This document shows, in pieces, positions 4,276 to 38,201 of a stretch of DNA of 38,201 nucleotides. This stretch comes from Woeseia sp. (GTDB lineage Bacteria > Pseudomonadota > Gammaproteobacteria > Steroidobacterales > Woeseiaceae), in the NCBI GenBank assembly GCA_018701055.1, contig JABIUH010000437.1:1-38201 (forward strand), written 5' to 3'. The position numbers and the translations under genes were made by a program. The stretch's first letter is position 1, and every line of letters starts with the position of its first letter. A model generated the notes under the pieces. That model was not told the DNA's origin, made no database searches, and was given only the letters and a program-made list of their open reading frames with translations.

Positions 4276-4296
4276 ATCTGGGTCGTACTGATATTT

Positions 4297-8650: not shown

Positions 8651-8675
8651 CTCTGGTATTGCCCCTTAGTCTTGC

Positions 8676-10010: not shown

Positions 10011-10074
10011 ATGGCCCCCAATTAACGGAAGAAGCGCGTAGCTTCTCACTATTTGCCGGAAACGTCTACATAAC

Positions 10075-10092
10075 TGAATGAACAATCATTCA
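10075..10092. promoter_or_regulatory. Candidate TetR/BetI-type operator: perfect 7-4-7 inverted repeat TGAATGA-ACAA-TCATTCA
   Basis: Read directly from the sequence. It lies in the 158-bp divergent intergenic region between the aminotransferase operon (start 10010) and the TetR gene (start 10169). Confidence 0.45.
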
Positions 10093-10168
10093 TTTTATGT
10101 CATTATCACCCTACCAAACAAAGTCTTAGGTAGTTTCTTTTGTCCATTAATCCTGAAAAATCAGAAAG

Positions 10169-10822
10169 TTGCCAGCGATGGTAGCCGGCAGCGCAACCGT
10201 GGGCCGGCGCGCATTGGCGAAAGAACAGCGCCGCCAGCAATTGATCGATGCCACGATCAAATGTATCGCGAAGAAAGGATTAAGCAGCACAACACTCGCG
10301 GATGTTGCGAAGGAAGCCGGCTTATCCCAAGGAATCGTCAACCTGCATTTTGATAGCAAAGATAATCTGCTTTACGAGACCTTGCGATACGTATCAGAAG
10401 ATTATGACAAACAGTTCATGGCAACCTATGCGCAAACATCCGCCGACCCTGCCGCCTGCTTGCTCGCGTTGATCAAAATGGATTTACAACCATCAATCTG
10501 TGATGCCAAGAAACTCGCGGTGTGGTTCGCGTTTTGGAGCGAAGTGAAAGCGGTCCCAACCTATCAGAAGTTATGTGCCGCGAGAGAACGCAAATATGAC
10601 GATGTCCTTGTCGACCTTGCCGCACGAATAATCGATGACGGCGGCTATGAGGATGCTGATGCCAGCCTGGTTGCCAAAGCACTGGGGTCGCTCACAGATG
10701 GATTGTGGCTCTCGTGCCTTGTCGATCCTAAAAGTTTCGACCGACAAGTCGCACTGAATACGGTTAAAAGCTATCTGCGCGGCATATTTCCCGATCATTA
10801 CCTAAGAGAACCAACAGCGTGA
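10169..10822 (+). CDS. TetR-family transcriptional repressor, BetI-like
   Basis: N-terminal HTH (RRQQLIDATIKCIAKKGLSSTTLADVAKEAGLSQGIVNLHF). BetI-like internal signatures WFAFW and LTDGLWLS, recalled from E. coli BetI. An alternative start lies a few codons downstream. Confidence 0.8.
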   Translation: MPAMVAGSATVGRRALAKEQRRQQLIDATIKCIAKKGLSSTTLADVAKEAGLSQGIVNLHFDSKDNLLYETLRYVSEDYDKQFMATYAQTSADPAACLLALIKMDLQPSICDAKKLAVWFAFWSEVKAVPTYQKLCAARERKYDDVLVDLAARIIDDGGYEDADASLVAKALGSLTDGLWLSCLVDPKSFDRQVALNTVKSYLRGIFPDHYLREPTA

Positions 10823-11979
10823 AATTAGAACTCAGTGACAACACCCTTGACTGGCAGGCAAAAGCGCGCGCATACGCGGATAAATACCTGCAACCCCACG
10901 AAGTCGAAGCCGAACTCAATGGCGGCGTACTAAGCGCCGAAATTACAAAGCGCAATAAAGCGCGTGCACTCGAGCTGGGCTTCAGTGCAATCGATGTGCC
11001 CAAGCGATGGGGCGGCCTGGAATTGCCGTTGATCGAACAGGTCGCCATTTGGGAGCAACTGGGTCGCGTAACCAATGCACTCTCGTGGTGTTTCCCAGAG
11101 CCACAAAAGTGGATGTTCGAGGCCTGCTCCGACGAGCAAATCGAGACCTATATCCTGCCAATGATGCGTGGCGAGAAAAAAGACTGCTACGCAATAACAG
11201 AGTCCGGTCCAGGATCGGATGTCGCCGGACTTGAGGCGACCGCAAGACGAGTAGGCGATGCATACCTATTAAATGGTGAAAAGTGGTACGTAACGAGTGC
11301 AAACCTGGCCAACTTTTTCTGGTTTCAGGCGGTCATACCCGAAGAGAACGCCGAAGCGCTGTTCCTGGTCGACATCGATGCACCGGGCGTTACGATGACA
11401 GCCAATCCTCTTTTCAGTCACACATACGCAGCACATCACCCGACCTACCAATTTAGTGACGTCGAAGTACCGCTGTCACAGCGCGTCGGCAGACCCGATG
11501 ACGGTATGGCTTATACCCGTAGCTGGTTTCGACACGAACGATTAATGATCGGTGCAAGAAGCTGCGGTGCCGCCGCGCGACTCATCGAAGATGCCACAAC
11601 GTTTGCTGAATCCAGAATGATTGGCGGAGAGCCCTTGAGTGAAAAGCAGGCGATTCAGTTCATGCTTGCAGATTGCGCAACCGAACTTTGGGCAGCCCGA
11701 CTAATGACCTTTGAGGCGGCAGCCGCCAGCGATCGCGGCGAAGATTTGAAGGCTCTACACAATCGTTGCTCCATGGTGAAACTGTATGTTTCTGAGATGG
11801 CAAATCGCGTTGTGGACCGAACCCTGCAGATTTTCGGCGGGCGCGGTTACATGCGAGAGAACGTTGCGGAGCGTTTCTTTAGAGAGCTGCGAGTTGACAG
11901 AATTTGGGAAGGCACAAGTGAAGTGCAGCGCCTGATCATCGCCCGAAACCTGCTCAAACGCGGCTTAGACAAGATGTAG
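10819..11979 (+). CDS. Acyl-CoA dehydrogenase family flavoprotein
   Basis: YAITESGPGSDVAG, FGGRGY and RIWEGTSEVQRLIIAR are present. The GTG start overlaps the TetR stop (GTGA at 10819-10822). Confidence 0.85.
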   Translation: MKLELSDNTLDWQAKARAYADKYLQPHEVEAELNGGVLSAEITKRNKARALELGFSAIDVPKRWGGLELPLIEQVAIWEQLGRVTNALSWCFPEPQKWMFEACSDEQIETYILPMMRGEKKDCYAITESGPGSDVAGLEATARRVGDAYLLNGEKWYVTSANLANFFWFQAVIPEENAEALFLVDIDAPGVTMTANPLFSHTYAAHHPTYQFSDVEVPLSQRVGRPDDGMAYTRSWFRHERLMIGARSCGAAARLIEDATTFAESRMIGGEPLSEKQAIQFMLADCATELWAARLMTFEAAAASDRGEDLKALHNRCSMVKLYVSEMANRVVDRTLQIFGGRGYMRENVAERFFRELRVDRIWEGTSEVQRLIIARNLLKRGLDKM

Positions 11980-12065
11980 TGAAATATTGATTATGCTTTT
12001 TGTAACCGTCGGCGTTGTGCTGGCCTGGTTTGTCGGCAAGAGAAAGCAAAAGTCAGCTGACGATG

Positions 12066-13286
12066 CTACCCATTGACGCTGGACGCTGTTCGAAGCTCAT
12101 GTAATAGCCACTCAACCCAGCGATTTTCATTAATTTCCATGAGTGAAAACGGGCCGGGACGATAAAATCGCGAATTTACACCGCGCCAATTGTTCACGAT
12201 GATCTCTTCATCCGCATAAGTGGTTACATCCCATAACCAAACCAGCTCATCACGATTGTAGTCTTGCCCCTCTACCGCATCATTCCGCACTAGCCAATAA
12301 ACCGTGCATTGGCAATTGCCCTGATCAACGGGTGTAAAAACATACATAACGACATGATCGCTGTACGCGAGCAGGTACGAGAACGGGCCAATCATGATAT
12401 CGGACGCGCCGCCATCGTAGTCCGTCAAATTGCCGAGCAACGGCGCTACCGGCGCTCCGTCACGGCTACCGGTTTTGTAGCCCTCAAACATTGCTGTTCG
12501 GCTATAGCCGTAGCCCTGCTGGCCGGCCGGCGCGTCCAGGTCGGTAAAGTCCAACTCCATATCTCTTAGGCCGCAGCTCTGCATGCGTTCCAGCATTTTC
12601 GATTGCACACGCGCCATTTTCTTGCCGTCGAGCATCAACGTGTGCATTTTCGCGTATTCCGCGTGGGACGGCGCACAGTGGTAACACTCTTGATAGTTCT
12701 CAACCGCAAGTTTCCAGTTCGCGGCAATCGGATAAGTTTTGACAGCCGCTACTTTCAGATCTTCGAGCCCAAACATTCGCAGAGGCTCATCGAGATCACT
12801 TTTCGCACGATCGAGAGATGGCGGTCCCTCACTGAAACAAACGAACATCAATCCTTGTATTACGTCGATTGAGATTCCATTCAGTCCGTACTGACTCTTA
12901 TCAAAATCCGCAGGCATATTCCGCGCCCCGACCAAGTTCCCCTCAGTGTCATAAACCCACGCATGGTAGGGACACTCGAAGCGACGTTTGTTACCCGCCT
13001 CCTCGAGGCAAACCACCGAGCCTCGATGCCGACACACGTTCGCGAAAGCCCGAAGAGCACCATCCTGGCCACGCACAATAATGGCGGATTCATTGGCGAC
13101 ATTGATTACTTTGAAGTCGCCAGGTTCTGCCACCTCAGATTCATGCCCGGCTAGAATCCAATTACGCATTACAATTTGATCTATCTCTAACTGATAGACC
13201 TCTGGATCGACGTAAAACCGTTGCTCCAGCGACCAGCCGCTTTTTTGGCAGGCGATCAGCTCGCTAATGGGTCGGGTATCGGACAT
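12066..13286 (-). CDS. Rieske [2Fe-2S] non-haem-iron oxygenase, alpha subunit type (GbcA/CntA/Stc2-like class)
   Basis: Rieske motif CRHRGSVVC...CPYHAWVY and mononuclear-iron motif ENYQECYHCAPSH. Length 406 aa. Confidence 0.85.
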   Translation of the reverse strand: MSDTRPISELIACQKSGWSLEQRFYVDPEVYQLEIDQIVMRNWILAGHESEVAEPGDFKVINVANESAIIVRGQDGALRAFANVCRHRGSVVCLEEAGNKRRFECPYHAWVYDTEGNLVGARNMPADFDKSQYGLNGISIDVIQGLMFVCFSEGPPSLDRAKSDLDEPLRMFGLEDLKVAAVKTYPIAANWKLAVENYQECYHCAPSHAEYAKMHTLMLDGKKMARVQSKMLERMQSCGLRDMELDFTDLDAPAGQQGYGYSRTAMFEGYKTGSRDGAPVAPLLGNLTDYDGGASDIMIGPFSYLLAYSDHVVMYVFTPVDQGNCQCTVYWLVRNDAVEGQDYNRDELVWLWDVTTYADEEIIVNNWRGVNSRFYRPGPFSLMEINENRWVEWLLHELRTASSVNG

Positions 13287-27586: not shown

Positions 27587-28405
27587 TTAGAATTCGAATT
27601 TGAATCCAACCTGAATCTTATACACGGATGGCAGTGCGTAGAAGTTTTCGGGATTGATGCCGTCCCAGAAATCGTCAATGGAACCATAGACGTACTGGCC
27701 ATTAGTATTTAGGGAAACCGAATCAACTGCGGTGAAGCTGAACGGGAAAGAGACTTGTTCCACGCGGCCCCAGTCATCATTTAACAGGTTGCCGAGGTTC
27801 TCAATGTCGAGATACAAGTTGAGTCTCGATTGCCCGATGGCAGGTATGTCGAACAGGCTGATTTCCTGCTGGATGCGAATATTGACTCGAGAACGACTCG
27901 ACGTCGTATCGTGGTTTCGCGGTGTTATCTGACCGCGGAAACCCTCGAGTCCGGCCACAGCGACAAAACTATTGAAGCTCGCTTCCAGTGCAGAATCGTT
28001 GCTCAGGGAGCCCGGCGTGTTACTGAAGATTACGTTCGGGTCACCCATCGTCGGCACATACATCAGCTGGCTGTCAAACTGCGCGAATGCTCTATTGCCA
28101 CCGCATACGGACGAAGGAGGGAATATGCCCTCCCGCATCGTGTAACTGAAGGGCCTGCCGCTGCGATATTCGAAGAACATGCTCACCCGAGTCATGTTGT
28201 CACCGAACAAATCCTTGCTCCAGTCGAGCGTGCCATTGACACGGTTCTTGACCAGGAAGTCGGAATTACTGAGGGCCCGACCGTTGCGATCAAACGTGGC
28301 CGGGGTGCCGTAGTTCGCGCTGACAAAAGAAGCTTGTGCCGGGTTCACGTCCTTCGCATCCATGTAAGTGTAGTGCAAAGTCATGCCGAACAGACCTACG
28401 TTTGT
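27587..28405 (-). pseudogene. C-terminal stump (about 270 aa) of a TonB-dependent outer-membrane receptor
   Basis: Ends in the typical C-terminal beta-strand ...YKIQVGFKFEF with terminal Phe. Alternating beta-barrel pattern. No plug domain, TonB box or signal peptide. The upstream end runs into IS3-derived sequence, and the boundary is approximate. Confidence 0.7.
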
Positions 28406-28560
28406 ATCCCACGCCTTCTTCACTCGCACGCATCAACGCTTCGCGTTTGAACTCAGGGCTATATCGTTTATAGCGCTTCTTCTTCGTCATAAGACACCTC
28501 CACACGCATTATCGCGCACATTTAAAGGTGTCCACCAAACCGAGGCAAGACCAGAACACG
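28406..28560 (-). mobile_element. IS3-family remnant: putative left end plus the first ~27 codons of orfA
   Basis: ATG at 28488-28490 opens MTKKKRYKRYSPEFKREALMRASEEGV, the conserved IS3/IS911 OrfA N-terminus. Upstream of it (minus-strand sense) is a GGTGGACAC-containing segment resembling IS3-family terminal repeats. The rest of the IS is missing. Both boundaries are approximate. Confidence 0.6.
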
Positions 28561-28792: not shown

Positions 28793-29743
28793 ATGAACGA
28801 GTCAACGAAAATAACAGGTAGAGAGTTTCGTCAAGCGCTGGGTACGTTTGCGACCGGTGTCACTGTCGTCACAACCACCGATTCCAACGGGCTTCCACGT
28901 GGCTTTACGGCCAACTCGTTTACGTCGGTCTCATTAGAGCCACCATTGATCTTGGTTTGTCTTGCCAGCGATGCGGCGACCTGCCCTGTCTTCACGGACA
29001 GCGGCTTTTTCAATGTGAACGTGCTGGCTGAGAATCAGCAAGATGTTGCCTCGATATTTGCCTCACCAGGAGATAAGCGTTTCGATAAAGTCACATGGTC
29101 CATTGGCGAAAACGGTCGACCGATTCTCGACGACACGATTTCGCGATTCGAATGCCAGACCAGTGAAGTCTATGAAGCGGGTGACCACGTTATTTTGCTG
29201 GGCAGAGTGACTGACTACAATTTCTCCAGCCGCAGTCCTTTGGTGTACTGCCGCGGCTCCTATGTCGAGTTCGGGCTTCTGCAACGCGCAATGGAAGCGG
29301 CCAGCAGCGGCAGACTTACGCGAATATCGGCCATTGTTGATTGTGGGGGCTCAATCCTGCTGGCCAAAGACGAAGCCTCCAAAACTTTGGCATTGCCCTC
29401 AGCGCCCCACGTTGGCGTGGCAGAGGAAGACGAATCGCTTATTGGCAAGCTTGCTGCGAGTGGAGTTGAAGTCGAGACGACCTTCGTTTGCTCCGTTTAC
29501 GAAGATACTGCAACCAAAACCAACAACATTGTTTATCGCGGCATCGCGACCAAAGTAGACAAAGCGGCAATTCACGACTACGACCTGGTTGCCCTGGACG
29601 ATATCCCCTGGGATCAATTGTGCGATGACCCACTACGCATGCTGCTTACCCGTTACATAGAAGAAACAGAGGTAGATGCTTTTGGCGTTTACGTAGGCGA
29701 CAACGTGCATGGTGAAGTCCATAAGTTGCGCGCCAGATCCTAA
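28793..29743 (+). CDS. Flavin reductase (FMN-binding split-barrel) fused to a C-terminal Nudix-like domain with a degenerate Nudix box
   Basis: The N-terminal ~165 aa (FRQALGTFATGVTVVTT...GFTANSFTSVSLEPPLILVCL...GDHVILLGRV) are typical of NAD(P)H-flavin reductases of two-component monooxygenases. Residues ~170-316 (RISAIVDCGGSILLAK...LALPSAPHVGVAEEDESLIGKLAASGVEVE...DIPW) follow a Nudix-fold pattern but lack the REUXEE glutamates. Confidence 0.75.
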   Translation: MNESTKITGREFRQALGTFATGVTVVTTTDSNGLPRGFTANSFTSVSLEPPLILVCLASDAATCPVFTDSGFFNVNVLAENQQDVASIFASPGDKRFDKVTWSIGENGRPILDDTISRFECQTSEVYEAGDHVILLGRVTDYNFSSRSPLVYCRGSYVEFGLLQRAMEAASSGRLTRISAIVDCGGSILLAKDEASKTLALPSAPHVGVAEEDESLIGKLAASGVEVETTFVCSVYEDTATKTNNIVYRGIATKVDKAAIHDYDLVALDDIPWDQLCDDPLRMLLTRYIEETEVDAFGVYVGDNVHGEVHKLRARS

Positions 29744-29777
29744 TTTAACGAACACAGAACGACATGAAGGAACACGA

Positions 29778-30917
29778 ATGAGAATCGGCTATTTTTGCAA
29801 TATGACCAACTGGTCGCACAAGGCTTACGATGTGTTGATCGATGAAGTGCGTGAGATTGGCGTCCATTGTGACGAAACAGGATGGGACTCCATCTGGTTT
29901 ACTGAGCACCACTTGAACCATGAAGGAATGGACGCTTGCCCGAACCCGTTGTTGTTCGGCGCCGACATGGCCGCACGCACGAAGCAAATTCGAATCGGTC
30001 AGGCAGCGAACATCATTCCGTTCTGGAACCCACTCCGCGTTGCGGAAGACATCGCCGTGCTCGATCACATGTGCAAGGGGCGTCTTGAGGTCGGCATGGG
30101 CCGTGGCGTATACGGCCGCGAAGCAATCCACATGAACCCTAAAGCCGATCTCAATGACCAAGCGAAAAATTTTCGCTTGTTTAACGAGTCGCTGGAAATC
30201 ATGAAGAAAGCCTGGACTGAGGATTTATTTAGTCACGACGGGGAGTTCTACGCCTACCCAGCGAAGGACTTCGTGTGGAAGCACGACATGAGCCCCCCTG
30301 ACCCCAGCTTCATGGATATGGAAACCAACACTCTGACGAAAATCGGTGTCGTGCCAAAACCATATCAAAAACCTCACCCACCCCTTTGGCAGGTTGTTGA
30401 CGGACACCGATCAATCGATTGGGCGGGACGAAATGGTTTGAATTGCATCATGTGGATACCCACGGTCAAGGCGCTCAAAGAGCGTTTCGAGGTTTATCAA
30501 ACAGCGCGTTCTGAAACAGAAGGACGAGATGTTCCACTAGGTGAAGGGATTTCCTTGGTACGCGATATGTTTGTCGCTGATTCGATGGACGAAGCGCGCG
30601 AAAAAGCAGCGGAAGGAATCATGACCTACATACGTTGGATCGCGCATTGGCGCGGCTTGGGTAATCACATGAATCCGGGTGAAGAACTACCGGAAACACC
30701 GGGTAAGCTGGATCTGTTGGACTACGACTTCCTGCATCCACGCAATCTACTCTTCGGCACACCCGACTACGTTGCCGAAAAAATTGATGAGCTCAAAACC
30801 GAACTCAATTTGCAGCATTTACAGGTATGGTCGAACTTCCCCGGCATGAATCATGACGACGTGATGCAGAGTGTTCGATTATTCTCCGAAAAAGTCTTAC
30901 CTCAATTCGCCGACTAG
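29778..30917 (+). CDS. Luciferase-like (LLM class) flavin-dependent monooxygenase
   Basis: WFTEHH, RIGQAANIIPFWNPLRVAEDIAVLDHMCKGRLEVGMGRG and a length of ~380 aa. Start ATG 29778 is preceded by GAAGGA. The ORF-track start at 29709 overlaps the upstream gene. Confidence 0.85.
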   Translation: MRIGYFCNMTNWSHKAYDVLIDEVREIGVHCDETGWDSIWFTEHHLNHEGMDACPNPLLFGADMAARTKQIRIGQAANIIPFWNPLRVAEDIAVLDHMCKGRLEVGMGRGVYGREAIHMNPKADLNDQAKNFRLFNESLEIMKKAWTEDLFSHDGEFYAYPAKDFVWKHDMSPPDPSFMDMETNTLTKIGVVPKPYQKPHPPLWQVVDGHRSIDWAGRNGLNCIMWIPTVKALKERFEVYQTARSETEGRDVPLGEGISLVRDMFVADSMDEAREKAAEGIMTYIRWIAHWRGLGNHMNPGEELPETPGKLDLLDYDFLHPRNLLFGTPDYVAEKIDELKTELNLQHLQVWSNFPGMNHDDVMQSVRLFSEKVLPQFAD

Positions 30918-30938
30918 AGGACGGATCGGAATGCATCG

Positions 30939-31715
30939 GTGACAACCGCTTATGATGTTTCGGGCACTGGCCCTACGGTCATCCTCGTGCATGGCCTTGG
31001 CCTGAATCGAAATATGTGGTGCTGGCAGCGCGAGGCCTTGGCGGCCGATCATCAAGTCATTCAATACGATCTACTCGGTCACGGCGAAAGCGCGAAGCCA
31101 ACGGGCCTTTATTCAATGGAGCGTATGGTCGAGCAGATCGCCGAGTTAATGGCTGCATTAAACATTCCGAAGGCCACATTGATCGGGTTCTCCCTTGGTG
31201 GTTTGATCGTTCGTGCTTTCGCGTTGGCACATGCTGATAAAACCCAAGCCCTGGTGATACTCAACTCCGCGCATGCAAGAACTCGTCCGCAGCGAAATGC
31301 GATTTTAGAGCGAGTAAAGCAAGCAGAGGAAGACGGCCCAGGCGCCACAATCGACGCCGCGTTGGTGCGATGGTTCAGCGAAGATTTTAGCAGACAAAAC
31401 CCACGCGTATTGGATCAGGTGCGAACCTGGGTAACGCAGAACGATGTGGACGCCTATCCTGCCGCGTATCGTTTATTAGCCAATGGCGATATTGGTCTGG
31501 AGAAAACGATTGCTGCCATTGAGTGCCCAACCTTAATAATGACCGGCGAGGAAGACTTCGGAAACTCGCCCGAAATGGCAGGTCAGATGGGGGCCATTAT
31601 GCCGAACGCTAAAGTTGCGATTTTGCCAGGTCTGCGGCACATGGCGCTGGCGGAGAACCCTGAGATGGTTAATTCAATACTCTTGGAATTCCTTGGGCAC
31701 CATTCGACCGTTTGA
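30939..31715 (+). CDS. Alpha/beta hydrolase, 3-oxoadipate enol-lactonase (PcaD) / RutD-like
   Basis: VILVHGLG...W, nucleophile elbow GFSLGG, PTLIMTGEEDF and a catalytic His in LRHMALAENPE. GTG start. Confidence 0.8.
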   Translation: MTTAYDVSGTGPTVILVHGLGLNRNMWCWQREALAADHQVIQYDLLGHGESAKPTGLYSMERMVEQIAELMAALNIPKATLIGFSLGGLIVRAFALAHADKTQALVILNSAHARTRPQRNAILERVKQAEEDGPGATIDAALVRWFSEDFSRQNPRVLDQVRTWVTQNDVDAYPAAYRLLANGDIGLEKTIAAIECPTLIMTGEEDFGNSPEMAGQMGAIMPNAKVAILPGLRHMALAENPEMVNSILLEFLGHHSTV

Positions 31716-31740
31716 TCACCGCGTAATTTAGGAACTAACT

Positions 31741-32127
31741 ATGGCGAGCAACAAAGAAATCATTGGTGAACCGCTGGTAATCGGCGGAAGGACACTCTCA
31801 CTTTCACGTGCCGTACGCGCTGGCGATATGATCTACCTAACTGGGCAGATACCGATGCAAGATGGCGCACCAATGACCGACGGCAGCATTGAGGATCAGA
31901 CTCGAAGCTGCATCGAGAATATTCGGGCAACGCTGCAGTTGACGGGTTGCGATCTCGACAATATCGTTAAGACGACCGTATGGCTGAAAGATCGCGCCGA
32001 CTTTCCTGGCTTCGACAAGACCTACGGTGAATATTTCAGCGATGCGCCACCCGCCAGAACCGGTCTGGTAGGTGAGTTTCTGGTCGACATCAAAGTCGAA
32101 ATTGAATGCATAGCGTACGCAGGCTAA
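31741..32127 (+). CDS. RidA/YjgF/RutC-family (reactive enamine/imine deaminase fold) protein
   Basis: 128 aa with IYLTGQIP, QTRSCIENIRATL, VKTTVWL and ARTG...VEIECIA. Confidence 0.85.
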   Translation: MASNKEIIGEPLVIGGRTLSLSRAVRAGDMIYLTGQIPMQDGAPMTDGSIEDQTRSCIENIRATLQLTGCDLDNIVKTTVWLKDRADFPGFDKTYGEYFSDAPPARTGLVGEFLVDIKVEIECIAYAG

Positions 32128-32146
32128 CAAAAGACGAGACAAGCAC

Positions 32147-33631
32147 ATGACGGCACTAAAAAATTATCAAATGTACATCGACGGTCAATGGGTCGATGCG
32201 GAAGATGGCGATTCGTTCACGAGCGTCAACCCGGCTACTGGCGAGGAATGGGCCCGCATACCCGCAGCAACGGCCGCAGACGTCGATCGGGCCGTTAACG
32301 CGGCGCATCGCGCGTTCACGTCCGGTCCTTGGTCAACAATGTTGCCGACCGAACGGGGCGCACTACTCCGCAACCTCGCTGAGTTAATGAAGAAACATTC
32401 CGAGATGCTGGGCAGAACTGAGACTGTTGACACGGGAAAATTGTTTACCGAAACGCGTTGGCAAGCCGCTTATCTCTCGAACTACTATCACTACTACGCG
32501 GGACTTGCCGACAAAGTACACGGCGCCACCTTGCCGATTGACAAGCCCAACATGTGGGCAATGACGGTACGTGAGCCGCTTGGGGTTGTTGCCGCAGTTG
32601 TCCCCTGGAACTCACAACTCTTTCTCGTTGCGGTCAAGATCGCCCCCGCGCTAGCAGCGGGTAACACGGTCGTATTAAAAGCTTCGGAACATGCTTCTGC
32701 TGCGATGCTTGAGTTCGGCAAAGTTTTCGAAGAAGCCGGTTTTCCTCCCGGAGTGATCAACATTGTTACCGGCACCGGCGACCCTTGTGGTGCTGCACTA
32801 ACATCGCATCCTCTGGTCGATCGCATTAGTTTTACGGGTGGCTTGAACGCCGCCCAGCAAATAATTCGCAATTCCGCGGAGAATTTCGCGGAAGTCTCGT
32901 TAGAGCTCGGCGGCAAATCACCCATGGTGATCTTTGACGACGTCGATATCGAAAATGCAGTGAACGGTATTTTGCTGAGCATCTTTAGCGCCACCGGTCA
33001 GAGTTGTGTTGCTGGCTCACGCCTGCTTATCCAGGACTCGATGTACGATCAACTCATTGAAAAGGTCGCCGCACGGGCAGCGCAAATTAGAATTGGCGAT
33101 CCGTTGGACGACAACAGTCAAATGGGCCCGCTCGCCACATTGGGACAACTCGAGCGTATCGAGGAAACGGTTGCCAATGCGATTGAGAATGGCGCCACAC
33201 TGGTTCACGGCGGCAAGGTGCCGGATCATACCGATAAGGGCTGGTATTACGAACCTACGATCGTTTCCTGTCCAAGCCAGAACCTCAGAATTGTCCGCGA
33301 AGAAATGTTTGGCCCCGTCGTGAGTGCATTAAAGTTTAGCGATGAAGAGGAAGCCGTGGCACTCGCAAATGACTCACGATTCGGACTCGCCGCTGGCGTG
33401 TTTACCCGGGATATCGGCCGTGCGTTGCGCGTTACGAAAGCGATTCGTGCTGGCATAGTATGGGTGAACACCTACCGGGTCGTTTCTCCTATGGCGCCAT
33501 TTGGCGGATTCAAAGACAGTGGTCATGGTCGCGAATCGGGTCTTGACGCGATTTACGATTACACGCGGGCCAAAACTGTTTGGCTCAATACATCACCGGA
33601 TCCGATCGACGATCCATTTCGAATGCAATAA
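32147..33631 (+). CDS. NAD(P)+-dependent aldehyde dehydrogenase
   Basis: VVPWNSQL, ELGGKSP (catalytic Glu), FSATGQSCVAGSR (catalytic Cys) and PFGGFKDSGHGRE. Confidence 0.9.
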   Translation: MTALKNYQMYIDGQWVDAEDGDSFTSVNPATGEEWARIPAATAADVDRAVNAAHRAFTSGPWSTMLPTERGALLRNLAELMKKHSEMLGRTETVDTGKLFTETRWQAAYLSNYYHYYAGLADKVHGATLPIDKPNMWAMTVREPLGVVAAVVPWNSQLFLVAVKIAPALAAGNTVVLKASEHASAAMLEFGKVFEEAGFPPGVINIVTGTGDPCGAALTSHPLVDRISFTGGLNAAQQIIRNSAENFAEVSLELGGKSPMVIFDDVDIENAVNGILLSIFSATGQSCVAGSRLLIQDSMYDQLIEKVAARAAQIRIGDPLDDNSQMGPLATLGQLERIEETVANAIENGATLVHGGKVPDHTDKGWYYEPTIVSCPSQNLRIVREEMFGPVVSALKFSDEEEAVALANDSRFGLAAGVFTRDIGRALRVTKAIRAGIVWVNTYRVVSPMAPFGGFKDSGHGRESGLDAIYDYTRAKTVWLNTSPDPIDDPFRMQ

Positions 33632-33643
33632 CAGAGTGAATCG

Positions 33644-34033
33644 ATGACAAGCAAAAAATTTGAAGACGGACTGAAAGTCCGCAAAGAAGTTCTCGGCGAG
33701 AAATACGTCGACGCTGCACTAAAGAACGTCGACGATTTCAATCGGCCCATGCAAGAACTCGTAACTGAGTATTGCTGGGGCAGCATCTGGACTCGAGAAG
33801 GACTACCACGCAAAACGCGGAGCTTACTCAACCTCGCGATGCTAACGGCACTCAACCGGCCACACGAAGTGCGCGCGCATGTATTGGGCGCCATTAACAA
33901 TGGTGTGACTCGAGACGAAATCATGGAGACCTTACTTCAGGCTGCCGTTTATTGTGGCGTGCCTGCGGGCATCGATAGCTTCAGAACAGCCAAGGCCGTA
34001 TTCGCTGAATTGGATGAACAGGAACAAATATGA
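33644..34033 (+). CDS. Carboxymuconolactone decarboxylase (PcaC/AhpD-like) family protein
   Basis: 129 aa. WGSIWTREGLPRKTRSLLNLAMLTALNRPHEV..HVLGAINNGVTRDEIMETLLQAAVYCGVPAG matches the gamma-CMD family pattern. Confidence 0.8.
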   Translation: MTSKKFEDGLKVRKEVLGEKYVDAALKNVDDFNRPMQELVTEYCWGSIWTREGLPRKTRSLLNLAMLTALNRPHEVRAHVLGAINNGVTRDEIMETLLQAAVYCGVPAGIDSFRTAKAVFAELDEQEQI

Positions 34034-34911
34034 ATAGAAATGTCATTATTACTTGCGCCGTCACTGGCGCGGGAGACGCGTGGTCGCGACATCCGGATTT
34101 GCCGGTCTCAACAGATCAGATTGCCGCAGCAGTATTGAGCGCAGCGGAAGCAGGTGCGGCTGTTGCGCATATTCACGTACGCGACCCGCAAACCGGGCAA
34201 GGCTCACGTGACGTAGACTTATTTTCTGCCGTGGTTGAAAAGGTTCGCGCCAGCGACACAGACGTCATCATCAATCTCACCGCTGGCATGGGTGGCAGCT
34301 GGTTTCCGTCCGAAGATGGCGACCCTAGCATGCCCGGCCCCGGCACCGACATGATTGGCCCGGCAGAACGACTCGCCCATGTCGACAAAGTACGTCCGGA
34401 TATTTGCAGCCTGGATTGCGGCACAATGAACTTCGGCGAAAATGAAACCTATATCAGCACCCCGGGTTACCTGACCAAGATGGCGGAACTCACACAAAGT
34501 TGGGGTGTGAAGCCCGAGATGGAGGTTTTCGATCTCGGGCACGTTCGTCTGGCCAAAGAGTTAATCAATCGCGGTGTCATTGATGCGCCGCCAATGTTCC
34601 AAATTTGCCTCGGCATACCATGGGGTGCAGATGCCGATACAGAAAGCATGCTGGCTATGCGTAACGCATTACCACCAGGTGCGAACTGGGCGGGCTTCGG
34701 GATTTCGAGAATGGAAATGCCAATGGTTGCCCAGGCAGTGCTGCTCGGAGGGCATGTACGCGTTGGTCTGGAAGACAATCTATATCTAGATAAAGGTGTG
34801 CTTGCGTCAAACGCCGACCTGGTGACGAGAGCGACGGAAATTATTAGCCGTCTCGGCGCGAAAGTTGCAACACCGGATGAAGCACGCGCGATACTCGGTT
34901 TGCGTAAGTGA
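34030..34911 (+). CDS. BKACE-family beta-keto acid cleavage enzyme (3-keto-5-aminohexanoate cleavage enzyme-like, DUF849)
   Basis: IITCAVTGA, AGAAVAHIHVRD and VRVGLEDN are present in a ~290-aa TIM-barrel-type protein. ATGA overlap with the upstream stop. Confidence 0.8.
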   Translation: MNRNVIITCAVTGAGDAWSRHPDLPVSTDQIAAAVLSAAEAGAAVAHIHVRDPQTGQGSRDVDLFSAVVEKVRASDTDVIINLTAGMGGSWFPSEDGDPSMPGPGTDMIGPAERLAHVDKVRPDICSLDCGTMNFGENETYISTPGYLTKMAELTQSWGVKPEMEVFDLGHVRLAKELINRGVIDAPPMFQICLGIPWGADADTESMLAMRNALPPGANWAGFGISRMEMPMVAQAVLLGGHVRVGLEDNLYLDKGVLASNADLVTRATEIISRLGAKVATPDEARAILGLRK

Positions 34912-34939
34912 GACCCGTCAACAACGCCAGGAGAAAGCA

Positions 34940-36439
34940 GTGAAGGAAGCTCGAATAGATAAGGTTCTATTCTTCGCAGCAACCGGCATCGCCATCGCTG
35001 TCTGTATTCCTTTGGGGCTCATACCCGAACGAGCAGAGCTGTTTGTCTCAGAACAATACGTTTGGATTTCAAGCAATCTGGGCGTGTTTTATCAAATGTT
35101 TGCCGTGCTCGCATTTTCCTTTCTTATTTGGCTGGCGCTCGGCAAGTACGGCTCAATCCGTCTCGGCGGCACGGGTGACAAACCGGATTATTCGACCTTT
35201 TCCTGGGTTGGCATGTTGTTTTGTGCTGGGACCGGCGCCTCTTTACTGGTCTGGGCCGGTGTTGAGTGGGCGTTTTACATTGACTCACCCCCCTTCGGCG
35301 CAGTGGCACGCTCTGCCGAAGCGATCGAGTGGGCGTCGTCTTACGGCGCGTTCCATTGGGGCGTTGCTGCATGGAGCTTCTACGCGTTGCCAACGATTGC
35401 GATTGCCTATCCCTATTACGTGCGCAACGTCCCGTACCTGCGTGCCAGCACTTCTTTGCACGCGATTCTCGGTAAGGACGGTGGAAACTCGCCAATAGGC
35501 CGGGCAGTCGATTTGGCCGCGATGATTGCGCTACTGGGCGGCGCCGGTACATCGCTAGGTGTAATTACGCCGACAATAGCGGCAAGCGTTGCCGAGTTAC
35601 TCAACTTGGAGACCTCCTTTTCGCTCGAGCTCATTGTCATGGCCGTGTGTATTGGATTGTTTGGCGCGAGTGTTTATCTCGGTCTGGATAAGGGCATCAA
35701 AAGACTGAGCAATATCAACGTCGTTTTGATTCTTGGCTTGCTTCTGTTCGTACTGATCGTTGGACCAACCCTTTTCATTCTCAAAAACTCACTCAATACC
35801 ACCGGCGTTCTGTTGCAAAACTTTATACGGATGATGACCTGGACTGATCCGGTCGAGAAGTCTGGATTTGTTGAAACCTGGACGGTGTTTTATTGGGCGT
35901 GGTGGATCGCTTTTGCGCTTCCCGTTGGCGTCTTTATTACACGAATTTCGCGTGGCAGAACCATTCGGCAGGTCATCCTGTCAATGCTTAGTTTTGGTAC
36001 GTTCGGTTGCTGGCTTTTCTATTTCATTCTAGGCAACTATTCACTCTCACTCGAGTTAAGCGAAACCTTTTCGGTGACTGGCAGCCTTGCCGAGAACGGC
36101 ATGTACGTTACGGTCGAAAATATTATCTCAACCCTGCCATTTGGCATTGCCGCGTTATCGTTATTTATTATTGCCAGCGTCATCTCCGTTGCTACAACCT
36201 ATGACTCGGCGTCTTACACACTGGCATCCACGGCGACACAGGAATTGAAGGAAGGTGAAAATCCGGCTCGATGGCATCGCCTGTTTTGGGCCGCGATTTT
36301 AGGTCTGGTGCCCGTATTCATGATGTTCGTTGGCGGGTTGGACATCATCCGCTCGGGCGTTCTGGTGGCTTCGTTGCCTCTCTTACTCATCGGCGTAGCA
36401 ATGATCGTGTCGCTCGTAAAATCTCTAAGAGATCATTAG
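34940..36439 (+). CDS. BCCT-family (betaine/carnitine/choline) transporter
   Basis: BCCT signature WTVFYWAWWIAFALPVGVFITRISRGRTIRQ and 12-TM-type hydrophobicity. I place the start at GTG 34940, preceded by AGGAGA. The ORF-track start at 34865 overlaps the BKACE gene. Confidence 0.85.
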   Translation: MKEARIDKVLFFAATGIAIAVCIPLGLIPERAELFVSEQYVWISSNLGVFYQMFAVLAFSFLIWLALGKYGSIRLGGTGDKPDYSTFSWVGMLFCAGTGASLLVWAGVEWAFYIDSPPFGAVARSAEAIEWASSYGAFHWGVAAWSFYALPTIAIAYPYYVRNVPYLRASTSLHAILGKDGGNSPIGRAVDLAAMIALLGGAGTSLGVITPTIAASVAELLNLETSFSLELIVMAVCIGLFGASVYLGLDKGIKRLSNINVVLILGLLLFVLIVGPTLFILKNSLNTTGVLLQNFIRMMTWTDPVEKSGFVETWTVFYWAWWIAFALPVGVFITRISRGRTIRQVILSMLSFGTFGCWLFYFILGNYSLSLELSETFSVTGSLAENGMYVTVENIISTLPFGIAALSLFIIASVISVATTYDSASYTLASTATQELKEGENPARWHRLFWAAILGLVPVFMMFVGGLDIIRSGVLVASLPLLLIGVAMIVSLVKSLRDH

Positions 36440-36569: not shown

Positions 36570-37472
36570 CTAGGATGCCTCTTCGACGATCCAATCGATA
36601 AAGTCTTGTACCTGAGGTAATGGCGACAATGACTTCGGTACAACGGCATACACCGTTTGATTTTGCGTTTGCTGCTCTCCAAGCGGTCTCACGAGACGAC
36701 CATCCGATAAAAATTCGTCGACGAGACCGCTAAAGCCCAAGGCGATACCCTCCCCCTGTAGCGCCAGTTGCATCACGTTGTCGTAAGAATTTAGACCCAT
36801 CAATCGAAACGACGGCGGCACCCGAATATCCATTGCATTCAACCACCACCACCAATCTTCTGTTGAGTGCGTTGCGCCGTCGAGGTTAATGAGTGTGTGC
36901 CGCAATAAATCCTCTGTCGCCGCTAAGGGCGTCGTTGAATCCAAGTAGAGTTGAGAGCACACGGGGAACGCGAAAACATCAAATAAGCGAATCGGCGTCA
37001 ATTCTGGCCAACGACCATCGCCATAGCGCAAGCCAACATCGATGCCATCGGTAATGAGATTTTGCAGTTGGTCCGAGATAGCGATGTGAATTTCGATATT
37101 TGGAAATCGTTTGCGAAATTCTGCCAGACGTGGCGTTAGCCAAAATGATCCAATCGCTATCGTCGCGCCAACGGTGATCTTGAAGTTTTGACGCGGTGCT
37201 CGAATTGTCCCCGAGACATAAGCGATCTTTTCGAGACTGTCCCGCACAACGACTTGCAATTTCTTACCTTCAGGGGTTAGAGCGATGGCGCGGTGCAAGC
37301 GCTCAAATACTTTCACCCCGAGGTGCTCTTCAAGCACCCGGATGTGACGACTGACCGCCTCGCGACTGATACGAATCTCCTCACCGGCACGAGTCAAACT
37401 CAAGTGTCGAGAGGCTGCTTCAAACGCAACCAGACTCTTTAAGGGTGGGAGATTGGCGGACAGGCTTTGCAT
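36570..37472 (-). CDS. LysR-family transcriptional regulator (GcvA-like subgroup)
   Basis: N-terminal wHTH LPPLKSLVAFEAASRHLSLTRAGEEIRISREAVSRHIRVLEEHLGVKVFER and a ~300-aa length. Confidence 0.9.
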   Translation of the reverse strand: MQSLSANLPPLKSLVAFEAASRHLSLTRAGEEIRISREAVSRHIRVLEEHLGVKVFERLHRAIALTPEGKKLQVVVRDSLEKIAYVSGTIRAPRQNFKITVGATIAIGSFWLTPRLAEFRKRFPNIEIHIAISDQLQNLITDGIDVGLRYGDGRWPELTPIRLFDVFAFPVCSQLYLDSTTPLAATEDLLRHTLINLDGATHSTEDWWWWLNAMDIRVPPSFRLMGLNSYDNVMQLALQGEGIALGFSGLVDEFLSDGRLVRPLGEQQTQNQTVYAVVPKSLSPLPQVQDFIDWIVEEAS

Positions 37473-37664
37473 GAACTAAATGTTACGCGAAAACCAGCCA
37501 ATTTCAATTGCCGGAACACTCACTACCTGGGGAAACCTCTGATTAACTGGAAGCCGTAATTTGGAATTGAAAGTTTGTCTTTCTCCAAAACGGATATGCC
37601 GATCATAGATAGTTCAGAAATCGAGGGTCCGCTTACGACCGAGTGGCCAATGGTTGACCCCTGC

Positions 37665-37814
37665 TTACTCGCCGGGATCGAAAACGTCCTCAATTTGTTG
37701 TTCGAAAAGGCGAGCAATCTTGAAGGCCAGTGGGAGTCCGGGATCGTATTTGCCGGTTTCGATGGCATTAACGGTTTGTCGGGAGACCTGAAGCTGGTCG
37801 GCAAGGGTTGCCTG
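37665..37814 (-). pseudogene. XRE-family small HTH regulator (YozG-like), 5'-truncated by an IS3 fragment
   Basis: QATLADQLQVSRQTVNAIETGKYDPGLPLAFKIARLF is the conserved core of ~65-70-aa XRE proteins. The first helix is missing. The annotated ORF start (37859) lies in IS3-derived sequence, giving a chimeric N-terminus. Confidence 0.6.
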
Positions 37815-38060
37815 CTTCTTTGAGTTCGGCGGTGATCTTCGCGGCCCCATACACGCCATTGCTGTCGATGTGAATGCCTCGGATCAAAACCATGAGTCGC
37901 CGGTCTATCTTTGCCCGCTGACGCTCAGGTCGGATTCGCCAGACGTAGTAACCGCTTCTCGATACACGCAGCACGCGGCACATCATTCCCATTGGGTATT
38001 GGTTGCGGCGTCGATCGATACAGATGTATCTCATTTCGACTACTTGGCAAAGAAAACCGC
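37813..38060 (-). mobile_element. IS3-family fragment: last 6 codons of orfA (AVFFAK-stop) and the first ~74 codons of orfB
   Basis: YPMGMMCRVLRVSRSGYYVWRIRPE...SNGVYGAAKITAELKEAG matches the IS3 OrfB N-terminal region. AVFFAK-stop at 38040-38060 matches the conserved orfA end (compare KAATYFAK in E. coli IS3, from memory). The DDE catalytic domain is absent. Confidence 0.75.
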
Positions 38061-38201
38061 TGTAGATTCAACGGGTGGCTGCAACAGATACTCTGAATGT
38101 GTCCATAACGGAGAGTTATCTGATGAAAAGAACATATACACAGGAAGAACGCGATCTTGCCTTTGATTTGTGGAAACAAGGTGCTGGCTTCAGCGATATA
38201 G
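38061..38201 (+). mobile_element. Left end of an IS30-family insertion sequence (terminal inverted repeat plus start of the transposase gene), continuing beyond the window
   Basis: 38061 starts TGTAGATTCAACGGGTGGCTGCAACAG. This closely resembles the IS30 left terminal repeat as I recall it (TGTAGATTCAATTGGTCAACGCAACAG). Confidence 0.75.
38123..38201 (+). CDS. IS30-family transposase, N-terminal 26 codons (partial, runs off the window)
   Basis: MKRTYTQEERDLAFDLWKQGAGFSDI parallels the E. coli IS30 transposase N-terminus MRRTFTAEEKASVFELWKNGTGFSEI (from memory). GGAGAG SD lies 7 bp upstream. Confidence 0.8.
   Translation, partial: MKRTYTQEERDLAFDLWKQGAGFSDI

Follow-up and report, generated by a model that had tools for sequence, protein, structure and literature searches.

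Do eight tightly packed genes in a marine Woeseia genome encode one catabolic pathway, and what would it degrade? [quoted passage not shown] The inter-gene gaps are 34, 21, 25, 19, 12, −4 and 28 bp, the negative value being a 4-bp ATGA overlap between the CMD and BKACE genes (34030–34033) that was read directly. This layout, described by an earlier sequence-only reading, held when all coordinates were re-checked, and Pfam backs the family assignment of all eight genes. The neighbourhood conservation on which that reading had made its proposal depend was also found: no fewer than seven further marine lineages keep the gene order, with same-order loci in Njordibacter, Halioglobus, Dasania marina, several MAGs and metagenome contigs. 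Because the order recurs at 53–86% protein identity across these lineages, the eight-gene arrangement is not due to chance.

The same reading had proposed one eight-gene pathway ending in BKACE. Comparison with related genomes does not support this, and we consider it fairly probable that the run is instead the junction of two catabolic modules, the first of which is a variant of the Tgn/Hom class. The genes from Fre to CMD (28793–34033) form a six-gene cassette (module 1) that is present or absent between the same flanking genes across related genomes. A 3HCDH/ECH/CoA-ligase/ACAD/BCCT/BKACE set (module 2) was found without the LLM cassette in contigs L033, L037, L043 and L045. BKACE adjoins BCCT, 3HCDH and ECH in contigs lacking the cassette, and BCCT adjoins BKACE at every locus holding both genes, cassette-free contigs included. 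A TPR-sulfotransferase gene abuts BKACE in L033 and L037, and an orthologue with 66% identity lies directly against Fre in L011; because module 2 is thus also found on its own beside this flanking gene, it would have a substrate of its own. The Njordibacter BKACE gene is on the other strand, where it adjoins 3HCDH and ECH genes. In a relative with 98–99% identity, module 2 carries on past LysR with a CDH-like 3HCDH, a CaiD-like ECH, an ADP-forming CoA ligase and an ACAD. The window's own lineage comprises L023 and L026 (95–100% protein identity); in L023, the 3HCDH, ECH and CoA-ligase genes start about 1.75 kb past the LysR gene, just past the window end, and in L026 they are followed by ACAD.

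Within the window, module 2 is represented by BKACE (34030–34911, plus strand; Pfam BKACE, 330 bits), whose HxH and LED motifs line up with those of Kce 2Y7D and whose Kce equivalog score of 252 falls short of the cutoff of 382, and by the BCCT-family betaine transporter (34940–36439, plus strand, GTG start; Pfam BCCT; TIGR00842, 429 against a cutoff of 408), which falls in the CaiT/YeaV-like branch. A LysR-family, GcvA-like regulator (36570–37472, minus strand; Pfam HTH_1 and LysR_substrate) is convergent with the operon and occupies the same position at most related loci. In the carnitine dehydrogenase/BKACE route, L-carnitine is converted to 3-dehydrocarnitine and then to betainyl-CoA and acetoacetate, as reportedly described by Bastard in 2014 and for the cdh genes of P. 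aeruginosa. The window and its close relatives share with this route BKACE, a CaiT-like BCCT, a CDH-like 3HCDH and a CaiD-like ECH, as judged by best-scoring equivalogs, but the carnitine equivalogs stay below cutoff (CDH 324 against 414, CaiD 316 against 500, CaiT 407 against 541), the ACAD is not CaiA-like and the CoA ligase is ADP-forming. Module 2 would be a lower pathway in its own right, serving a carnitine/crotonobetaine-like betaine. The cassette would have been inserted directly upstream of BKACE–BCCT, and it probably shares the BCCT importer and LysR regulator of module 2.

The two modules could still be linked metabolically, because in gammaproteobacteria the cassette adjoined module 2 genes in every case found (seven lineages), because an alphaproteobacterial Curvivirga contig has LLM–ABH–CoA ligase–BKACE in one direction, and because CMD and BKACE overlap. 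Together with the Dasania locus, where the cassette is accompanied by 3HCDH and ECH without BKACE or BCCT, and with a cassette that has no transporter of its own, these observations would suit one integrated pathway in which the cassette product passes through the module 2 enzymes. CMD would decarboxylate the ring-opened product to a crotonobetaine-like 4-(N-methylformamido)butenoate and the CoA ligase would activate it; the CaiD-like ECH would then hydrate and the CDH-like enzyme oxidise, leaving BKACE to form an N-formylsarcosyl-type CoA ester and acetoacetate. We regard such integration as unlikely: against it stand the independent occurrence of module 2, the LLM/ABH/ALDH sets found apart from module 2 (SAR11, Kiloniellales and other contigs), the tgn and hom routes as described, which need no CoA-dependent steps, and a proposed chemistry that is without precedent.

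Of the described systems, those that come nearest to the cassette are the clusters for homarine (hom, 2026) and trigonelline (tgn, 2018). The earlier suggestion of a two-component LLM oxygenase core for a heterocyclic betaine, which had named trigonelline and homarine, was thus well aimed (PMC13236597). The homarine operon homABCDER was described in Cobetia sp. OBi1 and Ruegeria pomeroyi DSS-3; knockouts of homB, homC or homD lost growth on homarine, the route was reported to yield N-methylglutamate, and each of the 120 Pelagibacter genomes is reported to carry homABCD (Ferrer-Gonzalez et al, 2026; PMC13236597). HomD is an ALDH, HomC is termed “peptidase”-like, HomA is said to carry an “FAD-binding domain”, and HMM E-values for homB reach 1e-240 and therefore indicate a protein of about 380 aa (PMC13236597). 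Our mapping of HomA to DUF1185 and of HomE to the reductase is putative and sits awkwardly beside the “FAD-binding domain” reported for HomA. As summarized in the homarine study, TgnB is an LLM, and TgnA and TgnB are the flavin-supplying and ring-opening pair (Perchat, 2018, cited in PMC13236597). The trigonelline pathway was reconstituted in vitro and the homarine pathway was defined genetically; TgnF is described as a DUF1185/PF06684 protein aiding the SSADH TgnE. Putative orthology to the characterised Tgn and Hom enzymes was assigned from cluster composition, SAR11 homologues and statements in the text.

The LLM (29778–30917, plus strand; Pfam Bac_luciferase, 150 bits; start codon placed at 29778, RBS GAAGGA) is the oxygenase component and presumed pyridinium-ring opener, of the HomB-type family. 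It is 72–99% identical to the LLMs of same-order clusters and 67% identical to a SAR11 LLM whose gene lies within an LLM–DUF1185–ABH–ALDH cluster; these SAR11 clusters adjoin soxBDAG and formate-THF ligase and have no carnitine-type neighbours. In an NJ tree, the LLMs of same-order and SAR11 clusters form sister clades, beyond which the next 50%-identity cluster representative stands at 56%. Identity to the LLM of tgn-type clusters is only 28–32%, and RutA does not feature among the listed equivalog matches of the LLM (25 out of 26). Among solved structures, the LLM comes closest to luciferase alpha chains and to 3,6-diketocamphane monooxygenase, which is a type-II Baeyer-Villiger enzyme. The latter relation, together with four neighbouring families that have carnitine enzymes as best equivalogs, is what a novel oxygenolytic carnitine/gamma-butyrobetaine pathway would lead one to expect. 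In such a pathway the LLM would open no pyridinium ring; its substrate would be a carnitine-type compound, attacked by type-II Baeyer-Villiger oxidation (of dehydrocarnitine or trimethylaminoacetone) or by C–N-cleaving oxygenation. We hold this to be improbable, since the genomic setting of the 67%-identical SAR11 LLM is in keeping with the homarine route as published, RidA and the TgnC-like ALDH suit N-methyl enamine chemistry, and the cassette can be separated from the carnitine-like genes.

The reductase component (Fre; 28793–29743, plus strand; Pfam Flavin_Reduct) is a 316-aa NAD(P)H:flavin reductase of TgnA-like, two-domain architecture: the Pfam match is confined to residues 17–159, homologues are conserved over the whole length, and PDB 3RH7 (SMa0793) matches over residues 9–312 (E=1e-60). 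The sequence-only reading had overlooked this two-domain make-up. 3RH7 represents the reductase gene of a DUF1185–ABH–Fre–LLM'–ALDH cluster on S. meliloti pSymA; clusters of this tgn composition also occur on a Thioclava plasmid and in A. baumannii, with SSADH added in two of the three. The ABH (30939–31715, plus strand; Pfam Abhydrolase_1), presumed to act in the TgnD/HomC role as deformylase/hydrolase of a ring-opened N-methylformamido intermediate, is 53–60% identical within same-order clusters. The RidA-family protein (31741–32127, plus strand; Pfam Ribonuc_L-PSP; TIGR00004, 88.8 against a cutoff of 106), a presumed enamine/imine deaminase releasing methylamine, has the Arg of the “PPARTG” motif, as read directly from the translation; its gene is kept in all same-order clusters and was not found in the SAR11 and tgn-type clusters examined. 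The ALDH (32147–33631, plus strand; Pfam Aldedh, 560 bits) would fill the role of TgnC/HomD, in which the aldehyde or lactol formed on ring opening is oxidised; assignment as an SSADH was ruled out (406 against a cutoff of 646; 35% identity to SSADH). The last of the six genes encodes the PcaC-like CMD protein (33644–34033, plus strand; Pfam CMD), presumably responsible for a decarboxylase or tautomerase step.

The PcaC and PcaD labels given earlier to CMD and ABH proved to be nearest-family names, both below cutoff (147.3 against 155.7 and 166 against 256, respectively). PcaD is nonetheless the best ABH equivalog, CMD falls close to its PcaC cutoff, and BKACE matches the 3-oxoadipate:acetyl-CoA acetyltransferase model (184 bits), as would be expected of a beta-ketoadipate-type lactone pathway in which PcaC-like, PcaD-like and 3-oxoadipate-cleaving enzymes process an LLM-made, carboxymuconolactone-like intermediate. 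Such a pathway is very unlikely: the BKACE match, too, is below cutoff, the ABH and CMD genes lie apart and BKACE is part of the other module, a CMD gene with 57% identity adjoins SSADH in the tgn-composition cluster of A. baumannii, and the region examined yielded neither a ring-cleavage dioxygenase nor a cycloisomerase. Hardly credible at all is Rut-like opening of a pyrimidine (or other lactam) ring, with ALDH standing in for RutE and RutB lost: the claimed match to the core of E. coli rutA–G holds at superfamily level only (LLM, flavin reductase, ABH and RidA for RutA, RutF, RutD and RutC), but the equivalogs are far below cutoff (RutF 98 against 255, RutD 87 against 239, RutC 44 against 169), RutG is absent from the cluster along with RutB and RutE, as noted earlier for the latter two, the transporter is a BCCT, and close homologues lie in hom/tgn-type contexts. 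The likeness to Rut may be one of chemistry type alone, namely flavin-peroxide ring opening followed by handling of a reactive enamine.

Returning to the Tgn/Hom class, the hom comparison was made through SAR11 cluster proteins standing in for those of Cobetia and R. pomeroyi. Shared with hom are the tight LLM family, the ALDH (54% to the SAR11 protein), an alpha/beta hydrolase, a regulator, a BCCT importer (in the Cobetia operon) and a marine heterotroph as host; in contrast to hom, the window lacks a DUF1185-type gene (the putative HomA), its ABH shares only 31% identity with that of the SAR11 cluster, RidA and CMD are extra, and the products, if RidA acts as proposed, would be methylamine and a 2-oxo acid rather than N-methylglutamate. 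With tgn of Acinetobacter baylyi ADP1 it shares the two-domain flavin reductase and the roles of LLM in ring opening, of ALDH and of ABH in hydrolysis, and with tgn-composition clusters the sequence of Fre (39–41% over the full length), ALDH (56–57%) and, in A. baumannii, CMD; it differs in LLM subfamily, ABH (31–34%) and gene order, in lacking DUF1185 and SSADH, and in having RidA. Two of these differences count against membership of the class: DUF1185, missing here, is common to both described systems, and the ABH shares only about 31–34% identity with its counterparts in either type of reference cluster.

Building on the observed gene content, conservation, modularity and homology relations, we infer the chemical steps and substrate of module 1 by analogy with the two described pathways. 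The two-domain reductase would use NAD(P)H to supply reduced flavin, with which the LLM and O2 would open an N-methylpyridinium ring to give an N-methylformamido-alkenal. ALDH would oxidise the aldehyde to a diacid, ABH would remove the formyl group, RidA would hydrolyse the N-methyl enamine/imine with release of methylamine, and the CMD protein would decarboxylate or shift a double bond. Homarine as substrate would lead to 2-oxoglutarate, and a trigonelline-like substrate to succinate semialdehyde. By its sequence, the LLM speaks for homarine or a close analogue; the accessory genes, CMD here and the SSADH and DUF1185 genes upstream of LLM in Halieaceae relatives, favour trigonelline-like chemistry. 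CMD has no obvious role in homarine degradation. Because LLM sequence and accessory genes point different ways, the candidate substrates are homarine, trigonelline or a relative.

The earlier remark that no described pathway with this gene combination was known is not supported: tgn already uses LLM, flavin reductase, ABH and ALDH, and hom, as mapped here, LLM, ABH and ALDH. What appears to be undescribed is this variant, with RidA and CMD present, DUF1185 missing and a third type of ABH. By sequence and by analogy, module 1 would thus represent an uncharacterised variant of the Tgn/Hom pathways that degrade N-methylpyridinium-carboxylate betaines.

Eight co-directional open reading frames run along the forward strand at 28793-36439 of the window and encode, by Pfam family, a flavin reductase (Fre; 28793-29743, Flavin_Reduct), a luciferase-like monooxygenase (LLM; 29778-30917, Bac_luciferase), an alpha/beta hydrolase (ABH; 30939-31715, Abhydrolase_1), a RidA-type protein (RidA; 31741-32127, Ribonuc_L-PSP), an aldehyde dehydrogenase (ALDH; 32147-33631, Aldedh), a decarboxylase-like protein (CMD; 33644-34033, CMD), a BKACE enzyme (34030-34911, BKACE) and a BCCT transporter (34940-36439, BCCT). 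A LysR/GcvA-type regulator (36570-37472, reverse strand) is convergent with the run. Start codons, set from homologues and from the genes called on a contig of 98-99% identity, give intergenic gaps of 34, 21, 25, 19, 12, -4 and 28 bp in order from Fre to BCCT, and the ATGA overlap of CMD and BKACE (34030-34033) was read directly. Because reading frames, families, gaps and overlap were all re-read in the window, we regard the description of the run in the sequence-only reading as accurate, except that it missed the two-domain nature of the reductase. Promoter and terminator scans returned nothing exceeding shuffled expectation.

Fre is a 316-aa protein of which Pfam covers residues 17-159 only, and its homologues conserve the full length. 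Its C-terminal half (approximately residues 170-316) forms a second domain, about 150 aa long, that is conserved but matches no Pfam family. The structure model of Fre (mean pLDDT 76.5) has its best PDB match in 3RH7 (SMa0793), which spans both domains (E=1e-60 over residues 9-312) and is the reductase gene product of a cluster on pSymA of S. meliloti. A fused DUF1185 was tested as the identity of the C-terminal domain, with a negative result; a regulatory role is conceivable, as in the C1 reductase of HPA hydroxylase. This two-domain reductase is found, too, beside N-methylglutamate-pathway genes without any LLM (locus L018) and beside another LLM in Rhodoligotrophos (L019).

The eight-gene arrangement is no chance juxtaposition. 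When the window proteins were compared by tblastn with loci fetched via the LLM, ABH and 3HCDH proteins, the order LLM-ABH-RidA-ALDH-CMD recurred, usually followed by BKACE-BCCT and the convergent LysR gene, in Candidatus Njordibacter, Halioglobus and Haliea MAGs, Dasania marina, several further gammaproteobacterial MAGs, and TARA and JGI contigs, with identities to the window proteins from 53% (ABH) up to 86% (LLM). The neighbourhood co-occurrence at issue in the sequence-only reading is kept across marine lineages; the cluster exists and is conserved. Marine metagenomes hold very many members of the LLM family (2776 clusters at E<=1e-20); the contig scan, run with a single-sequence query, reached close relatives only, and among plasmid-borne LLM relatives none exceeded 33% identity.

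Around the run, a 280-aa reading frame (27587-28429, reverse strand) ends in VGFKFEF, a motif typical of the C-terminus of TonB-dependent receptors; far too short for a full receptor, it may be what is left of a truncated gene, and it lies directly upstream of the cluster. In the relative L023 (98% identity) other genes stand upstream (Na+/H+ antiporter, peptidase S15). A separate catabolic island at 2179-13286, with an ECH gene at 1064-1876, encodes an ADP-forming CoA ligase, a GCV_T aminomethyltransferase, two FAD amine-oxidase-like proteins, a class-III aminotransferase, an acyl-CoA dehydrogenase and a Rieske-type oxygenase, and may represent another methylated-amine or betaine pathway. Past LysR, at 37473-38201, six-frame translations inspected by eye hold a small XRE-type HTH reading frame and the N-terminal part of an IS3-family transposase in broken frames; in other lineages (e.g. 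L011, L003, L004), genes for a CDH-like 3HCDH and an ECH come almost directly after LysR.

Judged by its proteins, the cluster would belong to a known class, the Tgn/Hom-type betaine ring-opening pathways, in a version that appears undescribed and is joined to a separable carnitine-like module. Trigonelline degradation in Acinetobacter baylyi (tgn; ACIAD254x), as Perchat reportedly described in 2018, starts with TgnAB, a flavin reductase and a ring-opening oxygenase, and is said to continue with a dehydrogenase, a hydrolase and an SSADH aided by a conserved hypothetical protein. TgnB (Q6F9F6) is a luciferase-like protein and TgnF a DUF1185/PF06684 protein that stimulates TgnE. The homarine operon homABCDER was reported in 2026 in Cobetia (sp. 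OBi1, ACFLL8_11490-11520) and R. pomeroyi (SPO3188-3192); that account likens HomA/HomB to TgnA/TgnB, describes HomC as peptidase-like and HomD as an ALDH, includes in the Cobetia operon the BCCT-type importer HomT, reports the operon in 120/120 Pelagibacter genomes examined and has homarine degraded to N-methylglutamate (PMC13236597, Ferrer-Gonzalez et al, 2026). It further credits HomA with an "FAD-binding domain" and gives homB HMM matches as strong as E=1e-240, hence a protein of about 380 aa (PMC13236597); SPO3188 (homA) is annotated as "hypothetical protein".

The SAR11 loci that we fetched carry LLM-DUF1185-ABH-ALDH adjoining soxBDAG and a formate-THF ligase gene, with no flavin reductase within 10 kb. 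This content fits the published homABCD without homE as well as the "hypothetical" annotation of SPO3188, and we infer from it that HomB is the LLM, HomC the ABH and HomD the ALDH; HomA would likewise be DUF1185 and HomE the reductase, two uncertain assignments because of the FAD-binding domain credited to HomA. On SAR11 contig L014 (7354-21167) the four genes are flanked by genes for formate-THF ligase, soxBDAG-like proteins and a dimethylglycine-dehydrogenase-like protein, which fit formate and N-methyl-amino-acid products from homarine. The best 120 matches each for the LLM, reductase and ABH queries were all marine metagenome proteins, with no named TgnB/HomB orthologue among them, and an exhaustive representative search with cluster look-up returned no named Tgn or Hom members.

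On S. meliloti pSymA (L108, 5458-17290), adjoining nodL/noeAB, the gene order is GntR-DUF1185-ABH-Fre-LLM'-ALDH-NIPSNAP-ABC transporter-SSADH, where LLM' denotes the LLM subfamily of such clusters. A Thioclava plasmid has the same composition, there with a BCCT, as has A. baumannii (L107, 7682-17398), in which a CMD gene directly follows SSADH. We take this composition as the tgn type because it equals TgnF, D, A, B, C and E and because the trc (trigonelline catabolism) genes of S. meliloti lie on pSym. The A. baumannii CMD is 57% identical to the window CMD, which argues that this protein recurs in the tgn/hom pathway class.

With the SAR11 (hom-type) LLM, which serves here as the HomB reference, the LLM of the window shares 67% identity, and it may by that be a HomB orthologue; a TgnB-type LLM was rejected at 28-32% identity, tgn-composition clusters (S. 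meliloti pSymA, Thioclava) supplying the LLM that stands in for TgnB. In a neighbour-joining tree the LLMs of the same-order clusters form one clade, which has the SAR11 clade as its sister; among representatives of 50%-identity clusters, the next one stands at 56%. ALDH is 54% identical to its SAR11 and 56-57% to its tgn-composition counterparts; for ABH the values are 31% and 31-34%, and it appears to be a third type. Neither Fre nor CMD has a SAR11 counterpart. Fre is 39-41% identical over its full length to Fre of the tgn-composition clusters and would count as a TgnA-type two-domain reductase, the reference for A. baylyi TgnA being assigned by cluster composition. Of the hom gene set the window holds LLM, ABH and ALDH, a complete match if HomA is the reductase and an incomplete one if it is DUF1185; neither a DUF1185 gene nor a TgnE-type SSADH gene was found in the window. 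In the Halioglobus relatives L004 and L022 both lie upstream of LLM.

The six genes from Fre to CMD, here called the cassette, thus combine a hom-type LLM with a two-domain reductase and a CMD of tgn type, and differ from both systems in the new ABH type, in RidA and in the absence of DUF1185. In a Kiloniellales MAG, ABH and ALDH of the window type go with an LLM of a third subfamily, which shares about 40% identity with LLM'. Candidatus Njordibacter (L001, 8854-11137) has two unlike LLM genes in tandem upstream of ABH-RidA-ALDH-CMD, one of window type (76%) and one in a subfamily sharing about 40% identity with the tgn-type LLM, which suggests two ring-opening enzymes feeding one downstream set. 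Tgn/Hom-type pathways are thus put together combinatorially, three LLM subfamilies being mixed with three hydrolase types.

BKACE carries the BKACE domain (PF05853; 329.7 bits vs a gathering score of 24.8), and its HIHVRD and GLEDN align with HLHIRE and GFEDN of Kce (2Y7D), the HxH and E of which we take to be metal ligands. A Kce (3-keto-5-aminohexanoate cleavage enzyme) identity was rejected on the equivalog NF052387 (251.8 vs a cutoff of 382). BCCT scores 429.1 against the TIGR00842 cutoff of 407.55 and is nearest to CaiT/YeaV, its score for the CaiT equivalog (407.3) lying below the cutoff of 541. In every gammaproteobacterial relative extending far enough, LysR is followed by 3HCDH (best equivalog L-carnitine dehydrogenase, 324 bits vs a cutoff of 414) and ECH (crotonobetainyl-CoA hydratase, 316 vs 500), usually with an ADP-forming CoA ligase and an ACAD after them; a CaiA identity of this ACAD was tested and rejected. 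In L023/L026, which are of the same lineage as the window (95-100% protein identity), LysR is followed after about 1.75 kb by 3HCDH, ECH and CoA ligase and, further on in L026, by the ACAD, so that all four fall just outside the window.

A metagenome scan seeded with the 3HCDH protein yielded four contigs (L033, L037, L043, L045) with ACAD, CoA ligase, ECH, 3HCDH, BCCT and BKACE and without the LLM cassette. A TPR-sulfotransferase gene abuts BKACE in L033 and L037, whereas in L011 the neighbour of its orthologue (66% identity) is the reductase gene; because of this, Fre to CMD are a six-gene cassette that occupies, or is missing from, a single site just in front of BKACE-BCCT. Given the cassette-less contigs, the position of BKACE in Njordibacter (opposite strand, beside 3HCDH and ECH) and the LLM/ABH/ALDH sets without this second module in SAR11, Kiloniellales and other contigs, BKACE and BCCT are primarily part of a carnitine-like module. 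The single pathway with a BKACE end step put forward by the sequence-only reading gives way to two separable modules.

We consider it improbable that the cassette product is nevertheless fed into the CoA-ligase/ECH/3HCDH/BKACE module as one integrated pathway, a reading favoured by the constant adjacency of cassette and second module in the gammaproteobacteria found, by one alphaproteobacterial contig with LLM-ABH-CoA ligase-BKACE and by the overlap of CMD and BKACE. In a specific form, which we likewise hold to be a long shot, the RidA/CMD cassette would be a third N-methylpyridinium-betaine branch, passing a decarboxylated crotonobetaine-like acid to the CoA-ligase/CaiD-like/CDH-like/BKACE module. 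Such a hybrid, if true, would couple flavin-dependent ring opening to a carnitine-style cleavage of beta-keto acids, ending in neither succinate semialdehyde nor N-methylglutamate, and would explain why the cassette always lies beside the second module in marine gammaproteobacteria. An LLM directed at carnitine, as its carnitine-like neighbours could suggest, is unlikely in view of the SAR11 setting in which its 67% homologue lies. The Rut pathway, which the first four genes resemble at superfamily level, fails on curated cutoffs (RutF on Fre, 98.3 vs 254.75; RutD on ABH, 87 vs 238.5; RutC on RidA, 44.1 vs 169.1), RutA (TIGR03612) is absent among the 25 listed of 26 NCBIfam matches to LLM, and by Pfam and NCBIfam the cluster has no isochorismatase, nitroreductase or NCS2 transporter (counterparts of RutB, RutE and RutG). 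The beta-ketoadipate pathway fails likewise, the earlier PcaC and PcaD labels falling short of their equivalogs (TIGR02425 on CMD, 147.3 vs 155.7; TIGR02427 on ABH, 166.1 vs 255.85).

For the separable cassette, we infer every step of the following route. A betaine would be imported, probably via the shared BCCT; Fre would provide reduced flavin, with which LLM would open the N-methylpyridinium ring to an N-methylformamido-alkenal; ALDH would oxidise this alkenal and ABH take off the formyl group; RidA, in whose translation the arginine motif PPARTG was read directly, would hydrolyse the N-methyl enamine/imine to methylamine and an oxo-acid; and CMD would decarboxylate or isomerise. The pointers to the substrate split two ways. 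By the family of its LLM the cassette would act on homarine or a close analogue, which would then yield 2-oxoglutarate and methylamine, bypassing the N-methylglutamate reported for hom. A trigonelline-like, succinate-semialdehyde-forming route is pointed to by CMD itself, by CMD beside SSADH in A. baumannii, by a true SSADH (TIGR01780, 696 bits vs a cutoff of 646) whose gene immediately precedes LLM in three Halieaceae loci and by a DUF1185 gene nearby in Halioglobus. The direct conversion of homarine, with N-methylglutamate dehydrogenase bypassed, is also the milder version of the third-branch proposal.

Phytoplankton and plants contain homarine and trigonelline as abundant nitrogenous metabolites, and how bacteria break them down was elucidated as late as 2018 and 2026. 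A differently wired version is present in marine gammaproteobacteria (Halieaceae, Dasania, Njordibacter) and in some alphaproteobacteria, with the same oxygenase family, another hydrolase, an added RidA and decarboxylase-like protein, and no DUF1185; Dasania marina, which has the cassette but neither BKACE nor BCCT, is a cultured host. The cassette would probably release methylamine and not N-methylglutamate, in which case other nitrogen and one-carbon products would enter the marine food web, and marker-gene surveys based on hom and tgn gene sets may misassign substrates.
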